This document shows, one piece after another, positions 84-7,934 of a DNA stretch of 8,254 bases. Within the stretch, counting starts at the first letter, position 1, and every line of letters begins with the position of its first letter. The notes beneath the pieces are model-generated. The model saw nothing but the letters and a program-made list of their open reading frames with translations, searched no databases and was not told the origin of the DNA. Source of the stretch: a virus (taxonomy: Duplodnaviria > Heunggongvirae > Uroviricota > Caudoviricetes); the IMG/VR virus record IMGVR_UViG_2663763413_000004; one strand, written 5' to 3'. The translations under genes were made by a program, and so were the position numbers.

Positions 84-584
84 TGTTGCCCCCACAAACA
101 GACTTCACGCTCAATCTCACGGCGAGTCATCAGCCCTTTCCATTGCTTACCGCCAGCGTATGTCCAGCGCCGTAGCTGATCACATGCGCCTTTGATATCG
201 CCCTGGTTTATTTTGCGAAGAAGCGTCGATGTTCTGAAATTGCCAGCGCCCACGTTGCACGTTGTAAACGAATGAGTAAAGAGCGCCGCGCGTTGTTTCC
301 GGTATATCGACTGTGATGTACGGGTTAATTTGTCTGGCGACAGTGGCAAGGTCTTTATTCAGGAGGGCTTTGCATTCTGCTTCGGTATACGTTTTACCGA
401 GCATGATGTCTTTTCCGGTGTGTCCGTGACATACAGTCCATACGCCAACGATATCTTTGTATGGTATGTAGCTGACACCTTCCAGGCCATCGTCACCACT
501 CGGACCAGTGATGAGCACAGACGCTATGGCAACAGCCCCACCACCAATAGCAGCAGCAATAGCCTTGCGTAATGATGGCGACAT
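80..584 (-). pseudogene. rrrD: SAR endolysin (phage-21 R / RrrD-type lysozyme), disrupted by a +7 frameshift
   Basis: ORF 180..584 gives the N-terminal 109 aa, including a Gly/Ala-rich signal-anchor-release segment ([20 protein letters not shown]), and ends ...[12 protein letters not shown] 80..349 resumes from residue 34 as [18 protein letters not shown]...CLWGQQ in another frame. Joining them gives 165 aa, the length I recall for RrrD. The break coincides with a perfect tandem 7-mer at 251..264. Start ATG 584..582 overlaps the holin stop (TAATG), with GAGG upstream. Confidence 0.85.
251..264. repeat. perfect 7-bp tandem duplication (cacgttg x2) causing the endolysin frameshift
   Basis: Plus strand reads gcc-cacgttg-cacgttg-taaacg. 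Removing one copy restores the coding strand TAC AAC GTG GGC GCT GGC (YNVGAG) and a continuous 165-aa endolysin. Confidence 0.9.
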
Positions 585-799
585 TATTCACCTCTCGCAG
601 CCTTACGCTTATCTTCTTTAATCTTGAAATAAAGGTTTGTCAGATACGTCAGCAAGCCAAATACCAGACTACCCAGCACACCTATTGCCGCCCACTGTGA
701 GGGCGTGACTTTATCGAGCAACTGTAAAAACCAGTACCCGGCACTACCTGCTGAGGTGCCATAGGCGACACCCGTTGTTAACTTATCCATGGATTTCAT
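584..799 (-). CDS. essD: class II pinholin (phage-21 S21 / EssD-type), intact
   Basis: 71 aa, [28 protein letters not shown]..., with the Met1-Lys-Ser-Met4 dual-start motif known for S21 and two hydrophobic segments. GAGGTGGGG lies upstream of the ATG; the stop overlaps the endolysin start. Confidence 0.88.
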
Positions 800-940
800 A
801 ACCCCACCTCGCAGACAAAGCGGGTGTAAATTAAGGGGATACTACGTATCGCAATAAAGGCAGAAACGTAACAGATTTGGAGTCAGTGAATAACTCAGGT
901 ATTGGGTTATCAGCTAATATCGAGACTCAAAAAATGGAAA

Positions 941-961
941 AACCCGCTCGACGGCGGGTTT
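941..961 (-). terminator. GC-rich hairpin with flanking A/T runs; intrinsic-terminator-like, stronger on the minus strand
   Basis: CCCGC (943..947) pairs with GCGGG (954..958). On the minus strand the stem is followed by TTTTTCCATTTTTT; on the plus strand only by TTTA. Lies ~145 bp upstream, in minus-strand sense, of the pinholin start. Confidence 0.5.
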
Positions 962-1005
962 AAGCTGTGTGACGAAGTAACCACTCTTAACAGCATAACC
1001 AATTT

Positions 1006-1019
1006 TTTACGTACGTAAA
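1006..1019. repeat. perfect 14-bp palindrome TTTACGTACGTAAA in the porin upstream region
   Basis: Read directly; the sequence equals its own reverse complement. About 370 bp upstream of the porin ATG in AT-rich DNA. Confidence 0.6.
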
Positions 1020-1388
1020 CTACTAAATGATATTTGTGAGAATGCCACCGAGTGTTCAAAACACCACCACAAATACATAAGAAAACTTCAACAAATAACC
1101 AATGAATAATTTCCGATGTTATTTTTAGTTTGTTTAAATTAAGCTAAAGAATTATAGAGCGCTTATAAATAAGTGCCATTAATATAAATTAGCTAATAGA
1201 TTTATTTTCGTTCAAACAAGAGCCATGAATAGGATTAGATAGAAAAGGTTCAGATAAAAATAGAGATCTACTTCACAAATTAAATGAGAAACTAAAACTT
1301 ACATCTTGAAATAATCGCATTGATTAGATGAATATTTATCGCGCAGTGACATCATTTTTTAATAATAGTTCAAAAAAAAGGGCGTACA
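1020..1388 (+). promoter_or_regulatory. AT-rich porin upstream region (promoter and 5' UTR presumed here)
   Basis: Long AT-rich tract of the kind seen upstream of classical porin genes; AGGG at 1379..1382 sits 6 nt before the ATG at 1389. No -35/-10 element can be assigned confidently by eye. Confidence 0.3.
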
Positions 1389-2501
1389 ATGAAAAAATTA
1401 ACAGTGGCAATTTCTGCTGTAGCTGCATCAGTACTGATGGCGATGTCTGCTCAGGCAGCTGAAATTTATAATAAAGACAGTAACAAGCTGGATCTATACG
1501 GGAAAGTTAATGCCAAGCACTACTTTTCCTCTAATGATGCAGATGATGGTGATACTACTTATGCCCGTCTTGGCTTCAAAGGTGAAACCCAAATCAACGA
1601 TCAACTGACTGGTTTCGGTCAGTGGGAATATGAATTCAAAGGCAACCGTGCTGAATCTCAAGGTTCTTCCAAAGACAAAACCCGTCTTGCATTTGCAGGC
1701 CTGAAATTTGGTGATTACGGCTCAATCGATTACGGCCGTAACTACGGTGTAGCATACGACATCGGTGCGTGGACTGACGTCCTGCCAGAATTCGGTGGTG
1801 ATACCTGGACCCAAACAGATGTGTTCATGACTGGTCGCACTACTGGTGTTGCAACTTATCGTAACAACGACTTCTTTGGTCTGGTCGATGGCCTGAACTT
1901 TGCTGCTCAGTATCAGGGTAAAAATGACCGCACTGACGTAACTGAAGCCAATGGTGATGGTTTCGGTTTCTCCACTACTTATGAGTATGAAGGATTCGGC
2001 GTGGGTGCAACCTATGCTAAATCAGATCGCACTGACGGTCAGGTCGCCTATGGTAAGAGCAAATTCAATGCCTCCGGCAAAAATGCGGAAGTATGGGCTG
2101 CAGGCCTGAAATATGATGCGAACAATATCTATCTGGCTACCACATATTCTGAAACTCAGAATATGGCTACCACATATTCTGAAACTCAGAATATGACCGT
2201 TTTTGGTAATAACCATATTGCAAACAAAGCACAAAACTTTGAAGCAGTAGCACAATATCAGTTTGACTTCGGTCTGCGACCATCTGTTGCTTACCTTCAG
2301 TCAAAAGGTAAAGACCTTGGTGTTCATGGTGACCGAGACTTAGTCAAGTATGTCGATGTCGGTGCTACTTACTACTTTAATAAAAACATGTCCACTTTTG
2401 TTGATTACAAAATCAACTTAATTGACGATAGTAAGTTTACCAAAACAGCTGGTATTGATACCGACGACATCGTCGCTGTAGGTCTGGTTTATCAGTTCTA
2501 A
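1389..2501 (+). CDS. nmpC: outer-membrane general porin, NmpC/OmpD/Lc family (prophage moron)
   Basis: 370 aa. Signal peptide [23 protein letters not shown] followed by AEIYNKD; conserved porin blocks ([49 protein letters not shown]) and the C-terminal VGLVYQF ending in Phe. Divergent from the lysis genes, as in DLP12. Symbol assigned from recall of the NmpC N-terminus. Confidence 0.9.
2135..2194 (+). repeat. perfect 30-bp in-frame tandem duplication inside the porin gene
   Basis: ggctaccacatattctgaaactcagaatat occurs at 2135..2164 and again, identically, at 2165..2194. It encodes the duplicated decapeptide [20 protein letters not shown]. Confidence 0.95.
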
Positions 2502-2520
2502 TCTGACTTACGAAAAAGAT

Positions 2521-2550
2521 ATGTTGCGGGAGGCTTTGCCTCCGCAACAT
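2521..2550 (-). terminator. 12-bp stem-loop; intrinsic terminator on the minus strand (tR'-like candidate downstream of Q)
   Basis: ATGTTGCGGGAGG / CCTCCGCAACAT with a 5-nt loop and one bulged G. On the minus strand it is followed by ATATCTTTTTCG; on the plus strand by ATAAGTGG, so no U-run there. Confidence 0.5.
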
Positions 2551-2689
2551 ATAAGTGGAGCCCTCAAGCCACTTCCTTTAGAAGCACTACCTTGCTTCTT
2601 ACTATATAAACCTTCTGTTATATATTACCCTTTATTTTGGGGGCGTTTCCACGCCCCATTTTTAATAACTTTTAGTAAACAATTGCATA
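2551..2689 (-). promoter_or_regulatory. candidate late promoter (PR') and Q-utilisation region downstream of Q
   Basis: In lambdoid phages PR' and qut lie immediately downstream of Q. This interval lies between the Q stop and a minus-strand terminator. No -35/-10 can be assigned confidently by eye. Confidence 0.3.
2639..2662 (+). terminator. intrinsic terminator for the porin transcript
   Basis: GGGGCGT / ACGCCCC stem (2640..2656) followed by ATTTTTAATAACTTTT on the plus strand. Confidence 0.6.
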
Positions 2690-3073
2690 TCAATTAGAAT
2701 TATTAGCAACGATATCCATATCTAACCGGATATCTAATGCCATTAACATCCCTTCAATTATGCCCTCAGCCTTCTGTAACCTTTTCCCGATATAACCATC
2801 CGAGCAGCAATGCTTACTTGCCAGTGACATGAATGTCATACCACATACATAATAATCTACTAATAAATCGTGTAAATCGCTGTTGTTCTTTTTCAGACGG
2901 GCCATGCACCCGCAAATGATCATCGCGTCATCGTCACAACATTGCGGGCGAGATTTTACTTTTGAAGGAATTAATCCCTTAAAACCGGCGGCAACGGACG
3001 ACCAGGTCACATCTTCATGATTATTAGCCGCCCACGCTCCCCAACGCTCAAGAACCATCTGAATATCACGCAT
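2690..3073 (-). CDS. quuD: late-gene antiterminator Q (phage 82 / QuuD type)
   Basis: [24 protein letters not shown]...[27 protein letters not shown]..., 127 aa from the ATG at 3073..3071, which has GGAG upstream. The ORF track extends it to 3088 ([10 protein letters not shown]); the shorter start matches the recalled QuuD length. Confidence 0.88.
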
Positions 3074-3158: not shown

Positions 3159-3299
3159 TCATACTCCTGCTCCTGTCAGGGTTTTGGCGTAATTCTTCAG
3201 TATTCGGTAATCGGTCAAAACAGAACCAGGAAAACGATATAAGCGCAGGCGCACCCAGCGGCGGCGAAGACGCTCTGCCATATAAGACTCAAACATCAT
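3159..3299 (-). CDS. ylcG: small nin-region protein YlcG (46 aa)
   Basis: Hand translation: [46 protein letters not shown]. Its ATG (3299..3297) overlaps the rusA stop as ATGA. Missing from the ORF track, presumably below its length cut-off. Identification from position and the recalled 46-aa length. Confidence 0.7.
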
Positions 3300-3662
3300 T
3301 CATCTCCCAGTTCGGTGATGGTCAGCTCCAGCTTCCCACCTTTGGTAACGGGCATCTTCACAACACGGTAATCAACGACCTGAATATCATCCAGCCAGAA
3401 ACCTGCTTTGGTGAGTGCGTCAAAAGCGGCTTTTTGCAGATTATCCAGGTCACGGCGACGGCGATCCGGCATGTGGCACTCAATACGGATTTTCACTCAC
3501 TGGCATAGCCAAGCCGATATCCAGCATTGCGTTTTTAATGATTCGGGCGACGTTATCGCAGTATGCCTGCCCCTCTGCGCTGACGTGCGTGCGCCCACGA
3601 TTATGGCGGTAATAGCGATTATTGCTCGGAGGCCAAGGTAATGTGATGCTGTAGGTATTCAC
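3296..3662 (-). pseudogene. rusA: Holliday-junction resolvase RusA, disrupted by a +4 frameshift
   Basis: ORF 3480..3662 encodes residues 1-55 ([24 protein letters not shown]...LAMPV) and then stops. ORF 3296..3496 encodes the rest ([26 protein letters not shown]...ELGDE) in another frame. Together they give the 120 aa of RusA. GTG start at 3662..3660 overlaps the ybcO stop (GTGA). Confidence 0.85.
3494..3501. repeat. perfect 4-bp tandem duplication (cact x2 on plus; GTGA-GTGA on the coding strand) causing the rusA frameshift
   Basis: Coding strand reads CCA GTG AGT GAA AAT CCG TAT TGA. Deleting one 4-mer gives CCA GTG AAA ATC CGT ATT GAG TGC CAC (PVKIRIECH), the expected RusA sequence. Confidence 0.9.
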
Positions 3663-5050: not shown

Positions 5051-6058
5051 TTGTATGGTATGTCAATGGCCATGTCGGTCGGGAGTTGTGCAACACCTGT
5101 CCAGACTAATTTTCCTGGTTACACCCCGGGTGCAGATATCATTAGTGTTTCACCCACCAGAAACCAGGTCGATCTCATTGGTGATGTTGTTTATTCCCAG
5201 ATAAAAGGAACTCGTTCTGTCAGACAGCTTCACATGTCAGTTCTTGTCCCGCGAACAAATGATTTAAAACCAGCCATTATTTATTATCCCGGCGGCGGAT
5301 TCATGTCTTCTGAACATGACAAATTTATTGAAATGAGAATGGCTCTGGCTGAAGCTGGTTTTGTTGTGGCCGCTGTAGAATACAGAACAATTCCTGATAC
5401 ATTTCCAGCACCAGTTGAGGATGGGAAAGCTGCAATACGTTACTTGAGAGAACATGCCAGCGATTATGGGATTGATCCTCAAAGAATCGGAGTTCTGGGT
5501 GACTCTGCCGGTGGATGGCTTGCCCAGATGATGGGAACTACAAATGGTGACAAAACCTTTAATAAAGGTGACTTTCTTCAGCAATCAGCAGATGTTCAGG
5601 CAGTTGCCACACTTTATGGGATTTCTGACTTGTTGAATATTGGCGAGGGGTTCCCTGAATCAGTGCAGGAGGTTCATCGATCTCCTGCCGTAACCGAAGC
5701 CTTAATGATCAATGGCCCTGCATTCAGAAGTTTTGCGGGAGCCCCCATAACAGCGTCAAAAGAAAAAGCGCTAAACGCCAGTCCAATCGGACATATGAAA
5801 GGAGTAAAACCCCCATTTCTTATTATGCATGGTAGCAAAGACACTCTGGTTTCACCTGAGCAAAGCGCCAAACTATTCAGGATGTTGAAGAAGAACGGCG
5901 ATAACGCTGAGTACGTTCTGGTAGAAGGGGCTGAGCATGGCGATAATACATGGTATCAGCCAATTATTATAAACAGAGTTGTTGAGTGGTTTACTAAAAA
6001 CCTGGGAACCCCCATAAAAACCGCTACCCAACAACAAAAAACAAACGCTGACCTGTAA
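5051..6058 (+). CDS. alpha/beta-hydrolase fold esterase/lipase (Abhydrolase_3 / HSL-like family); start uncertain
   Basis: Oxyanion-hole motif YYPGGGF, nucleophile elbow GDSAGG, YRTIPDTFPAPVEDG block, and candidate catalytic Asp (HGSKDTLV) and His (GAEHGD). The track start is TTG at 5051; ATGs follow at 5060, 5066 and 5072, none with a convincing Shine-Dalgarno. An in-frame ATG at 5006 is followed at once by TAA (see findings). Confidence 0.85.
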   Translation: MYGMSMAMSVGSCATPVQTNFPGYTPGADIISVSPTRNQVDLIGDVVYSQIKGTRSVRQLHMSVLVPRTNDLKPAIIYYPGGGFMSSEHDKFIEMRMALAEAGFVVAAVEYRTIPDTFPAPVEDGKAAIRYLREHASDYGIDPQRIGVLGDSAGGWLAQMMGTTNGDKTFNKGDFLQQSADVQAVATLYGISDLLNIGEGFPESVQEVHRSPAVTEALMINGPAFRSFAGAPITASKEKALNASPIGHMKGVKPPFLIMHGSKDTLVSPEQSAKLFRMLKKNGDNAEYVLVEGAEHGDNTWYQPIIINRVVEWFTKNLGTPIKTATQQQKTNADL

Positions 6059-6407: not shown

Positions 6408-7934
6408 TCAAAAATAAATCTCACCATCAACCATATATTTAAGAGTACTTATCGCCTGCTGGGCGGATATTACTTTCATTAAAGGATAGTGTTTAAAAAC
6501 AATGCCATTCATAAAATAGATATCACAGGTTTTATTATCTGTATTAATTATAATTTTTTCGAATATTTTATAGGCAAGTGTACGACATAGCTCTCGCCCA
6601 TTTTTACTGGTTAAATCAATAGCATGAAAATCACCAAGTGAACTCACCCCTTTACTCTTCAAAGTTTTTAATGATACCGAAGCCCTTCGTAATTCCTTAT
6701 CTAATAGTCTTATTTTCTCTGCTATAGCGGTAACTTCAGGCGCGACAGACAATGCAACGATTAAATTATTAATTTTCATCTGAAGCTCAATAATTTTTAA
6801 CTCTAAAGTTTCATTAGCATCTTTCTTGTTTTCAACTGGTTGAATTTTGCTACAATTAAAAAGCAATTCATTAATGATATTATAATCAACCAAATCTCTT
6901 TTTATTGATGGTCTGTCACATCGATGTAATCTTCTCATCGGACAAACATAATAGCCATGCAAACTTCCAGATACCGCATGAACAATCATGGTATTACCAC
7001 AAGCCTCACACTTCATAACTGTTCGAAGTAGATTTATTAGCATAGGATTCTTGCTACTATTGCTAATACCAAAAGGTGCCAACCGAATTTCCTGTACAGC
7101 GTAAAACAAATCATCTGATATGACTCTGGGATAATAGCCAGCGATTTCACTTATCCCTTTCCCTCTTGCACGATATGAAGGTACGCATATACCTATCAGA
7201 GCTTTATTCGCTAATAATTTTTCAATTACAGAAGGTCCCCATGCACTTTCTTTTCCTGAGAAATTCTTTACAGCATGATCATTTAAATACTTGGCTATTG
7301 CATTCAATGAGCGCCTTTCCATCCTGAGTTTAAAAATTAGCTCAATAGTTTTCACCCTGTCGGGGTCTGGAACAAAAGCCGTTCTTTTGTCATCCAATGA
7401 GAGCCATCTCGGACAAGAAGCCGTCATAATCGTGCCTGACTCCAGTGCATCCTGCCGTTTTTTCTTCCATGATAATTTAACCCGACTTGACTTTATCTCG
7501 CTTTCTTCATTTGCCCTTTGTGCTATAAGTATGGCTTTTATTAATGAATATGGCTCATTCAATGAGTCAATATTATAGACTGTATTATCGCAAAGAGTTA
7601 TAACATCAATACCGTGATTCAAAATCAATTTCAGACGCTCAATCGCTTCACCGACTTTTTCTCTTGAAAGTCTGTCCAGACTTTCAACTAACAATGTAGT
7701 CCCTGGCAATATATAACCATGTTCTATAGCATCTAAAAATTCCGAAAAAGCTCCTGATTGTGCATGCTTTCCATTGAATGCGCTTAACCCCAAATCTTCA
7801 TACGTTACGGTATCAAGGTAATAATCACTATTTACCTTTAGCCATTCAGTAATAAGCCTTCTCTGGCGGTTTAATGAATCACCAGACATCTGACCTGGTG
7901 ATGAAAATCGCATATATGCTATGGCTTTTTTCAT
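6408..7934 (-). CDS. ybcK: large serine recombinase (508 aa; resolvase-type catalytic domain, recombinase domain, zinc ribbon, coiled coil)
   Basis: N-terminal AIAYMRFSSPGQ...SLNRQ and LLVESLDRLSRE match resolvase/invertase catalytic motifs (Arg-x-Ser nucleophile region). C-terminal CEAC...YYVCPMRRLHRC is a zinc-ribbon-like cysteine cluster, followed by a predicted coiled coil. AGGTG lies 5 nt upstream of the ATG. Length and locus agree with my recollection of DLP12 YbcK; the symbol is recall-based. Confidence 0.85.
   Translation of the reverse strand: MKKAIAYMRFSSPGQMSGDSLNRQRRLITEWLKVNSDYYLDTVTYEDLGLSAFNGKHAQSGAFSEFLDAIEHGYILPGTTLLVESLDRLSREKVGEAIERLKLILNHGIDVITLCDNTVYNIDSLNEPYSLIKAILIAQRANEESEIKSSRVKLSWKKKRQDALESGTIMTASCPRWLSLDDKRTAFVPDPDRVKTIELIFKLRMERRSLNAIAKYLNDHAVKNFSGKESAWGPSVIEKLLANKALIGICVPSYRARGKGISEIAGYYPRVISDDLFYAVQEIRLAPFGISNSSKNPMLINLLRTVMKCEACGNTMIVHAVSGSLHGYYVCPMRRLHRCDRPSIKRDLVDYNIINELLFNCSKIQPVENKKDANETLELKIIELQMKINNLIVALSVAPEVTAIAEKIRLLDKELRRASVSLKTLKSKGVSSLGDFHAIDLTSKNGRELCRTLAYKIFEKIIINTDNKTCDIYFMNGIVFKHYPLMKVISAQQAISTLKYMVDGEIYF

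Follow-up and report, generated by a model that had tools for sequence, protein, structure and literature searches.

The stretch 2502..2689 is very probably where the antiterminator gene Q and a porin gene carried as cargo meet tail to tail, with the IpeX RNA on the plus strand and the late promoter PR' displaced to ~986 on the minus strand. This reading is based on homology, position and co-variation, and the start site, Q binding and terminator function that belong to it are predictions from sequence. The value of the analysis is in correcting where the late promoter is placed, while the stretch as such has little to add.

Genomic context

The window, which is the complete 8,254-nucleotide stretch of DNA that was analysed, is a DLP12-type cryptic lambdoid prophage of Escherichia coli in reverse orientation, from which the early region including the early promoters is missing. 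It contains the following genes:

180..584, minus strand: SAR-type endolysin
584..799, minus strand: phage 21-type holin (EssD), first late gene (Pfam PF04971, E = 2e-35)
1389..2501, plus strand: NmpC/Lc-type porin, convergent with Q (Pfam Porin_1, E = 1e-148)
2690..3073, minus strand: antiterminator Q of the QuuD type, 127 aa (Pfam PF06530, E = 9e-54)
after Q, minus strand: ylcG, rusA, ybcO, ninE and ybcN
5051..6058, plus strand: alpha/beta hydrolase (BD-FAE / Abhydrolase_3)
6408..7934, minus strand: ybcK-type serine recombinase

The porin ORF ends with a TAA stop codon at 2499..2501 on the plus strand and the Q ORF with a TGA at 2692..2690 on the minus strand, while the holin start at 799 is 1.9 kb beyond the end of Q; the preliminary description of this DNA had the layout right in placing the end of Q at 2690, the lysis genes 1.9 kb further on and the porin in the opposite direction between them.

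IpeX in the 3' UTR of the porin gene

The features recognised between the two stop codons are:

2502..2663, plus strand: porin 3' UTR, IpeX RNA homologue (93% identity to the K-12 DLP12 nmpC-quuD spacer)
2521..2550, minus strand: bulged GC-rich hairpin, likely intrinsic terminator for transcripts leaving Q (sequence, fold energy)
2640..2663, plus strand: intrinsic terminator of the porin/IpeX transcript (terminator scan; stem 2640..2657, T-run 2659..2663)

Homology to the locus where ipeX was defined supports the assignment of 2502..2663 on the plus strand as IpeX RNA. Alignment of 2440..2720 with the nmpC-quuD region of K-12 DLP12, where quuD and nmpC are likewise convergent, gave a mean column identity of 93%, and this bears out the earlier suggestion that 2502..2689 is the porin 3' UTR at the IpeX locus. 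IpeX is a 167-nt RNA of DLP12 and PA-2, which is part of the porin transcript and is then processed (PMC12197685); it is produced from the porin promoter and acts on ompC and ompF, with lower levels of host OmpC and OmpF as the reported effect. The window copy shares with the nmpC/lc 3' UTR of DLP12 and PA-2 its position between the stop codons of an NmpC/Lc-type prophage porin and Q, the intrinsic terminator at its end and a length close to ~167 nt, as the terminator T-run ends ~165 nt past the porin stop, which fits the reported size by geometry. It differs from the K-12 copy by eleven substitutions and three single-base indels, and whereas the K-12 DLP12 porin is interrupted by IS5, the porin in the window is not, so that transcription from the porin promoter can reach the UTR, as in PA-2. 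A scan of the whole window against Rfam at a permissive threshold gave no match, and no Rfam family fits IpeX.

The identity of this 3' UTR as IpeX is already known, and the prophage module that contains it is among the commonest in E. coli: the 2502..2689 sequence is present in 2501 of the 5426 complete E. coli genomes, is 100% identical in ~680 of these, and was also found in deposited lambdoid phage genomes. The 167-nt plus-strand RNA 2502..2668 has a predicted folding energy of -53.6 kcal/mol versus -31.7 +/- 3.4 for shuffled sequences (z = -6.5, with 0/200 shuffles as good), and five hairpins are predicted within 2502..2663 on the plus strand, with the terminator as the last of these. Most of the substitutions among the 22 sequence variants of 2502..2689 are in hairpin loops. 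A 58-aa ORF on the plus strand (2521..2697) had no match in a Pfam search, and was rejected as a gene and taken as a chance ORF within the UTR.

Convergent terminators and a predicted overlap of transcripts

The two hairpins had previously been attributed to opposite strands, with 2521..2550 terminating on the minus strand and 2640..2662 on the plus strand, and the T-runs and terminator scan agree with this in both cases. The plus-strand terminator was called by the scanner and consists of GGGGCGT-TTCC-ACGCCCC (2640..2657) followed by ATTTTTAATA, with a constant stem and a variable loop across the variants. The hairpin at 2521..2550, ATGTTGCGGGAGGC-TTT-GCCTCCGCAACAT, has 13 base pairs in its stem and a single bulged G. 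Downstream of it the minus strand reads ATCTTTTTCG (2520..2511), with a T-run at 2520..2514, whereas the plus-strand continuation ATAAGTGG is without a T-run, and on the plus strand the same hairpin forms the 5'-proximal stem of the IpeX region. A terminator search scored the minus-strand hairpin followed by TCTTTTTC at -20.3 kcal/mol, while the consensus terminator scanner overlooked it because of the bulge. Every porin-cargo locus keeps the hairpin, but about one third of the variants have a weaker T-run, TCTTTTA.

These terminators are crossed, with the Q transcript predicted to end at ~2514 and the porin transcript at ~2663, giving an overlap of ~150 nt (2514..2663). The overlap could itself be regulatory, as the tail of the Q mRNA (2689..2514) is fully complementary to the IpeX/porin 3' UTR, although we consider this unlikely; much the same low likelihood applies to its proposed consequences, in which porin expression in the lysogen destabilises stray Q mRNA, and early transcription after induction neutralises IpeX. 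The size of the overlap, the preservation of the crossed layout in all porin-cargo loci and the precedent of the anti-Q antisense RNA paQ in lambda speak for such a role, but the overlap stops short of the Q coding region, convergent genes often have crossed terminators, the weakened minus-strand T-run affects a third of the variants, and the promoters for early transcription are those missing from this cryptic prophage. Mutual antagonism of the porin+IpeX and Q transcripts through a duplex, as a porin-linked analogue of lambda paQ, is a model to which we give rather little credence; if true, the Q-IpeX duplex would tie receptor remodelling to the lysis decision. Early transcription reading out of Q, notably when N-modified in an intact phage, could generate RNA complementary to IpeX and perhaps also to the porin, and this is a different mechanism from the antisense late transcripts that had been proposed for this locus.

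A homologue of the Stx phage late promoter between porin and holin

The simple tail-to-tail junction, with PR' elsewhere, remains our preferred reading, and the most likely position of the late promoter is 1019..940 on the minus strand, where it is placed by homology and co-variation and not by promoter strength. When the PR' region of Shiga toxin (Stx) phages was compared with the window, the single match besides Q was at 1022..938 on the minus strand, between porin and holin, and 2551..2689 was without homology to the PR' used by the same Q subtype in Stx phages. The features of the homologous region are:

1019..1014, minus strand: -35 sequence TTTACG
1013..998, minus strand: 16-bp spacer
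997..992, minus strand: -10 sequence TATGCT, aligned with PR' of Sakai Sp5 and phage 24B
1006..1019, minus strand: palindrome TTTACGTACGTAAA over the -35 hexamer, proposed Q-binding element
~986, minus strand: predicted late start (G)
989..977, minus strand: invariant initial transcribed block TAAGAGTGGTTAC
961..940, minus strand: GC hairpin, tR'-like intrinsic terminator (terminator scan; T-rich tail to 930)

Both the TAAGAGTGGTTAC block (977..989) and the palindrome of this Q subtype, TTTACGNNCGTAAA (1006..1019), occur once in the window, and are thus absent from 2551..2689, where the preliminary description had argued that late transcription must start; the PR' homologue, as predicted from sequence, instead falls inside 965..1388, the interval which that description had itself set against its own placement. 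The tR'-like terminator (930..961) comes shortly after the predicted start and precedes the holin gene by 130 nt. The fold of the leader is not unusual (z = -1.2), and covariation was discarded as support for the hairpin, since the stem is mostly just conserved and few variants have a different stem.

The region resembles the PR'-tR' cassette of the Stx phages 933W, Sakai Sp5 and 24B, which is the source of the StxS RNA, in Q subtype, -35 hexamer, 16-bp spacer and type of palindrome, in having an identical TAAGAGTGGTTAC block, and in the homologous GC hairpin with T-run. The differences are that the -35 sequence overlaps the last Q codons in the Stx phages whereas the cassette in the window is 1.7 kb from Q, that the -10 sequence is TATCAT in the Stx phages and TATGCT in the window, and that the Stx phages have a 258-nt StxS leader, while in the window neither a second terminator nor such a leader is apparent ahead of the holin gene. 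In the record of phage 24B, TTTACG-16-TATCAT is annotated over and after the end of Q, together with a qut site and a terminator. In the Sakai strain, dRNA-seq and Term-seq gave a distance of 258 nt from the PR' start to the tR' 3' end, with an RNase E cut at GUAUU at +173; a start at position 745 of the Sakai Sp5 sequence (L008), six bases after TATCAT, fits both values, and we infer the Sakai start from this fit to two published distances, as the coordinates in the paper are those of an earlier version of the record.

The Sakai Sp5 sequence also contains a strong terminator-like hairpin with seven T's at L008 770..797, corresponding to ~+26..+53 of the PR' transcript. The Stx PR' RNA is nevertheless 258 nt long and ends at the second terminator, and therefore the first hairpin after the PR' start is leaky in the Stx phages and not a complete block, although the question can be raised whether a short RNA of ~50 nt was missed in the published mapping. 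A separate observation is that the best promoter match in the spacer between porin and holin is ATGGCA-17-TATAAT (10/12) at 1151..1179 on the minus strand, which is directed toward the holin gene and is located ~165 nt upstream of the Stx-like cassette, and of which the -10 sequence is kept in K-12.

Q belongs to the Q21/933W family

The Q protein matches PF06530 over its full length, and is 80-83% identical to the Q proteins of Shiga toxin phages over residues 1-120. In all relatives the homology stops at ...EMD (residue 120), and beyond this point the C-terminal tails vary in both length and sequence. Comparison with the Q21 structures 6P18/6JNX gave E = 3e-8, with residues 8-88 as the only detectable match. 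The Q21 system of phage 21 is thus alike in its PF06530 domain and in having its Q-binding element where the one proposed for the window is, in the promoter region upstream of the start, and unlike in its weak sequence similarity to the Q protein of the window; furthermore, Q21 recognises two 8-bp subsites arranged as a direct repeat, whereas the element associated with the Q subtype found here is a palindrome (inverted repeat). The Q strand also has a promoter-like sequence within the Q gene itself (TTTACA-16-TATTAT, 10/12, at 2849..2876 on the minus strand).

The palindromes of the late cassettes vary with the type of Q

The search was expanded to IMG/VR using the cassette core TAAGAGTGGTTACNTNGNCAC, which identified 120 loci, of which 101 had enough upstream DNA. 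A family Q gene with 38-100% identity to the Q of the window was present upstream and on the same strand in all of these (101/101). The gap between Q and cassette was 41-92 nt in 24 of the 101 IMG/VR contigs and 632-2479 nt in the other 77, and these 77 long gaps hold diverse genes, almost always on the opposite strand, with a porin in ~45. The same order of Q, cargo and cassette, with other cargo, is found in the deposited phages SfII and PhiR55_1, and the order Q-porin-cassette-holin is found in the plaque-forming phages mEp332, Turner and 434B, the last of these, a viable hybrid phage, with the K-12 module, which reaches 2.9 kb owing to IS5 and still serves there.

When aligned on the core, the cassettes share the position of the -10 sequence, the start region and the following hairpin with T-run, which is present in 74/74 cassette variants albeit with a different stem sequence in some. 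They differ in a short palindrome that covers the -35 sequence and the upstream part of the spacer, and the type of palindrome matches the Q sequence cluster in 101/101 loci, with six types in total:

QuuD/933W cluster: palindrome TTTAC[GA]NNCGTAAA, 56/56 loci
Cluster ~50% identical to the window Q: GCGGTCCGC-like palindrome, 23/23 loci
SfII-type cluster: palindrome ACGCGTACGC, 18/18 loci
Cluster ~65% identical to the window Q: palindrome TGTTATAACA, 5/5 loci
Two further small Q types: palindromes TGGAATTCCA and TTCGTTACGAA, 2 loci each

This pairing holds with or without cargo between Q and cassette. We read the -35 palindrome as a candidate for the site bound by Q proteins of the 933W type, which are of medical relevance, although such a perfect association could partly reflect linkage rather than function.

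A sigmaE-type promoter as a less likely site of Q action

A different start site for the lysis genes has been described for DLP12. Rueggeberg 2015 is said to have found that RpoE drives the promoter essDp and that the essDp -35 sequence matters for Q action, and so reportedly assigns the action of Q to a sigmaE promoter ~350 nt upstream of the Stx-like cassette. In the window, the probable counterpart of this published promoter is:

1339..1371, minus strand: sigmaE-like GAACTA-16-TCACT, +1 at ~1339, probable DLP12 'essDp'

The motif and the porin start codon are 18 bp apart, and the motif faces away from the porin. PMC7918800 has the DLP12 lysis-operon regulatory region cloned as "-121 to +650", following Rueggeberg 2015, and when the primers given there were mapped on the K-12 sequence, the +1 was at L001:6875, equivalent to ~1339 in the window, with GAACTA-16-TCACT at exactly the right distance upstream. 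The published DLP12 lysis promoter thus also appears to lie between porin and holin, and also contradicts a start in 2551..2689. A rival reading takes the sigmaE-type promoter as the main Q-responsive start, with the cassette at 1019..940 as a relic or only a terminator, but this seems to us quite improbable. Known Q proteins load at sigma70-dependent promoter-proximal pauses beside a Q-binding element. In addition, the sigmaE motif is part of porin-specific cargo DNA, which relatives sharing this Q subtype lack, whereas they all have the Q-palindrome cassette. Of the two candidates for the place where Q acts, we therefore prefer the Stx-like cassette to essDp; they are not mutually exclusive, and could coexist.

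Probable displacement of PR' by a porin cargo module

The Stx-like cassette therefore remains the favoured late promoter, and its distance from Q is explained by the sequence between them:

1025..2712: cargo module of ~1.7 kb between Q codon 120 and the PR' -35 sequence (Q homology ends at residue 120, PR' homology resumes at 1022)

Its contents are the porin gene with its promoter region and IpeX 3' UTR, both convergent terminators and seven substitute C-terminal codons of Q. Relatives with other cargo at the same site are without the 2502..2689 sequence, and all keep the cassette beside the late genes.

With consensus promoter scanning, the minus strand of 2551..2689 gave nothing at a threshold of at least 9/12, and a relaxed scan gave two 8/12 sites (2651..2622 and 2628..2601), of which the better candidate has its -35 sequence within the stem of the plus-strand terminator; such scans do not discriminate, as the PR' homologue (1019..992) likewise scores 8/12 and was also missed by the standard scan. 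It is extremely improbable that PR'/qut is located in 2551..2689 with the 2550..2521 hairpin as tR', and that Q-modified polymerase runs antisense through the porin to the holin, even though PR' abuts Q in the textbook layout of lambda, 21, 82 and the Stx phages, the minus-strand terminator ~140-170 nt past the Q stop resembles the 6S spacing of lambda, and the two weak promoter-like matches in 2651..2601 mean that consensus alone cannot exclude a start there, since the cognate PR' homology is at 1019..940, the Q-type palindrome and conserved start block are absent, the region is porin cargo missing from relatives which keep their cassette by the late genes, and the better promoter candidate has its -35 sequence in the terminator stem. 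The hairpin and T-run (2550..2521) that follow 2551..2689 on the minus strand are equally expected for ending the Q transcript. The argument for a start next to Q had assumed that PR' always abuts Q, which is untrue in the Q21/933W family.

In the lysogen, the porin promoter would transcribe the porin and IpeX RNA on the plus strand up to the terminator at 2640..2663, while on the minus strand 2502..2689 would be only the untranslated tail of the transcript leaving Q, which the 2550..2521 hairpin and T-run would stop before the porin gene, insulating it from read-through. Q made from 3073..2690 would act in trans on RNA polymerase starting at ~986 on the minus strand, at a late promoter consisting of TTTACG-16-TATGCT, a palindrome at 1019..1006 as the Q site and the conserved TAAGAGTGGTTAC block, and would carry it through the terminator at 961..940 into the holin gene at 799. 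As the porin module is inserted between Q and PR', such late transcripts would lead away from the porin and would never cross it. The claim that they are antisense to the whole porin gene hence conflicts with the predicted start at ~986, which is beyond the porin, and the proposed Q-driven antisense switch between the lysogenic and lytic programmes has lost its basis, because the late promoter is most likely not in 2551..2689. The mechanism envisaged there resembles the phi80 Tai/Ati 'noncontiguous operon', where reverse-oriented cargo is silenced by late transcription; however, the phi80 cargo is downstream of the late promoter, whereas the porin in the window is upstream, and therefore late transcripts would not cross it.

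Implications for annotation, and the gap between Q and PR' as a cargo site

In the Q21/933W family the late promoter need not abut Q, which makes the "first intergenic region after Q" an unsafe guide for PR' annotation, nor can it be taken for granted that the porin is silenced by antisense late transcripts. The survey suggests that the gap between Q codon 120 and the PR' -35 sequence is a recurrent insertion site in phages of this family for cargo expressed in the lysogen, including the porin, Kiwa, and known or candidate defence genes. A literature search gave no earlier description of the Q-PR' gap as a hot spot, which is not proof of novelty. The cargo genes observed in the gap were porin, lipoproteins, Kiwa KwaB, a KAP NTPase (PDC-S20), PDC-M53, an HNH nuclease (PDC-M68), an NA37-like protein and an alpha/beta hydrolase. 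A general rule that cargo carries a Q-facing terminator was rejected, as a Q-strand terminator after Q is detectable in some cargo classes only.

Differences from UPEC132 and K-12

Uropathogenic UPEC132 matches the full 8.25 kb of the window with the exception of one substitution and three small tandem duplications, and 2502..2689 is free of all differences between the two. The three duplications are the only indel differences. The one in the porin (2134..2163) is an in-frame duplication of 30 bp which repeats 10 residues and is absent from the otherwise identical UPEC132 gene. A 7-bp duplication (CACGTTG) at 251..257 frameshifts the endolysin gene, giving an ORF of 134 aa instead of 165, and a 4-bp duplication (TCAC) at 3493..3496 frameshifts rusA, which is split into ORFs at 3296..3496 and 3480..3662; both genes are intact in UPEC132. 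With regard to K-12, the alpha/beta hydrolase gene at 5051..6058 stands where K-12 DLP12 has ybcL-ybcM.
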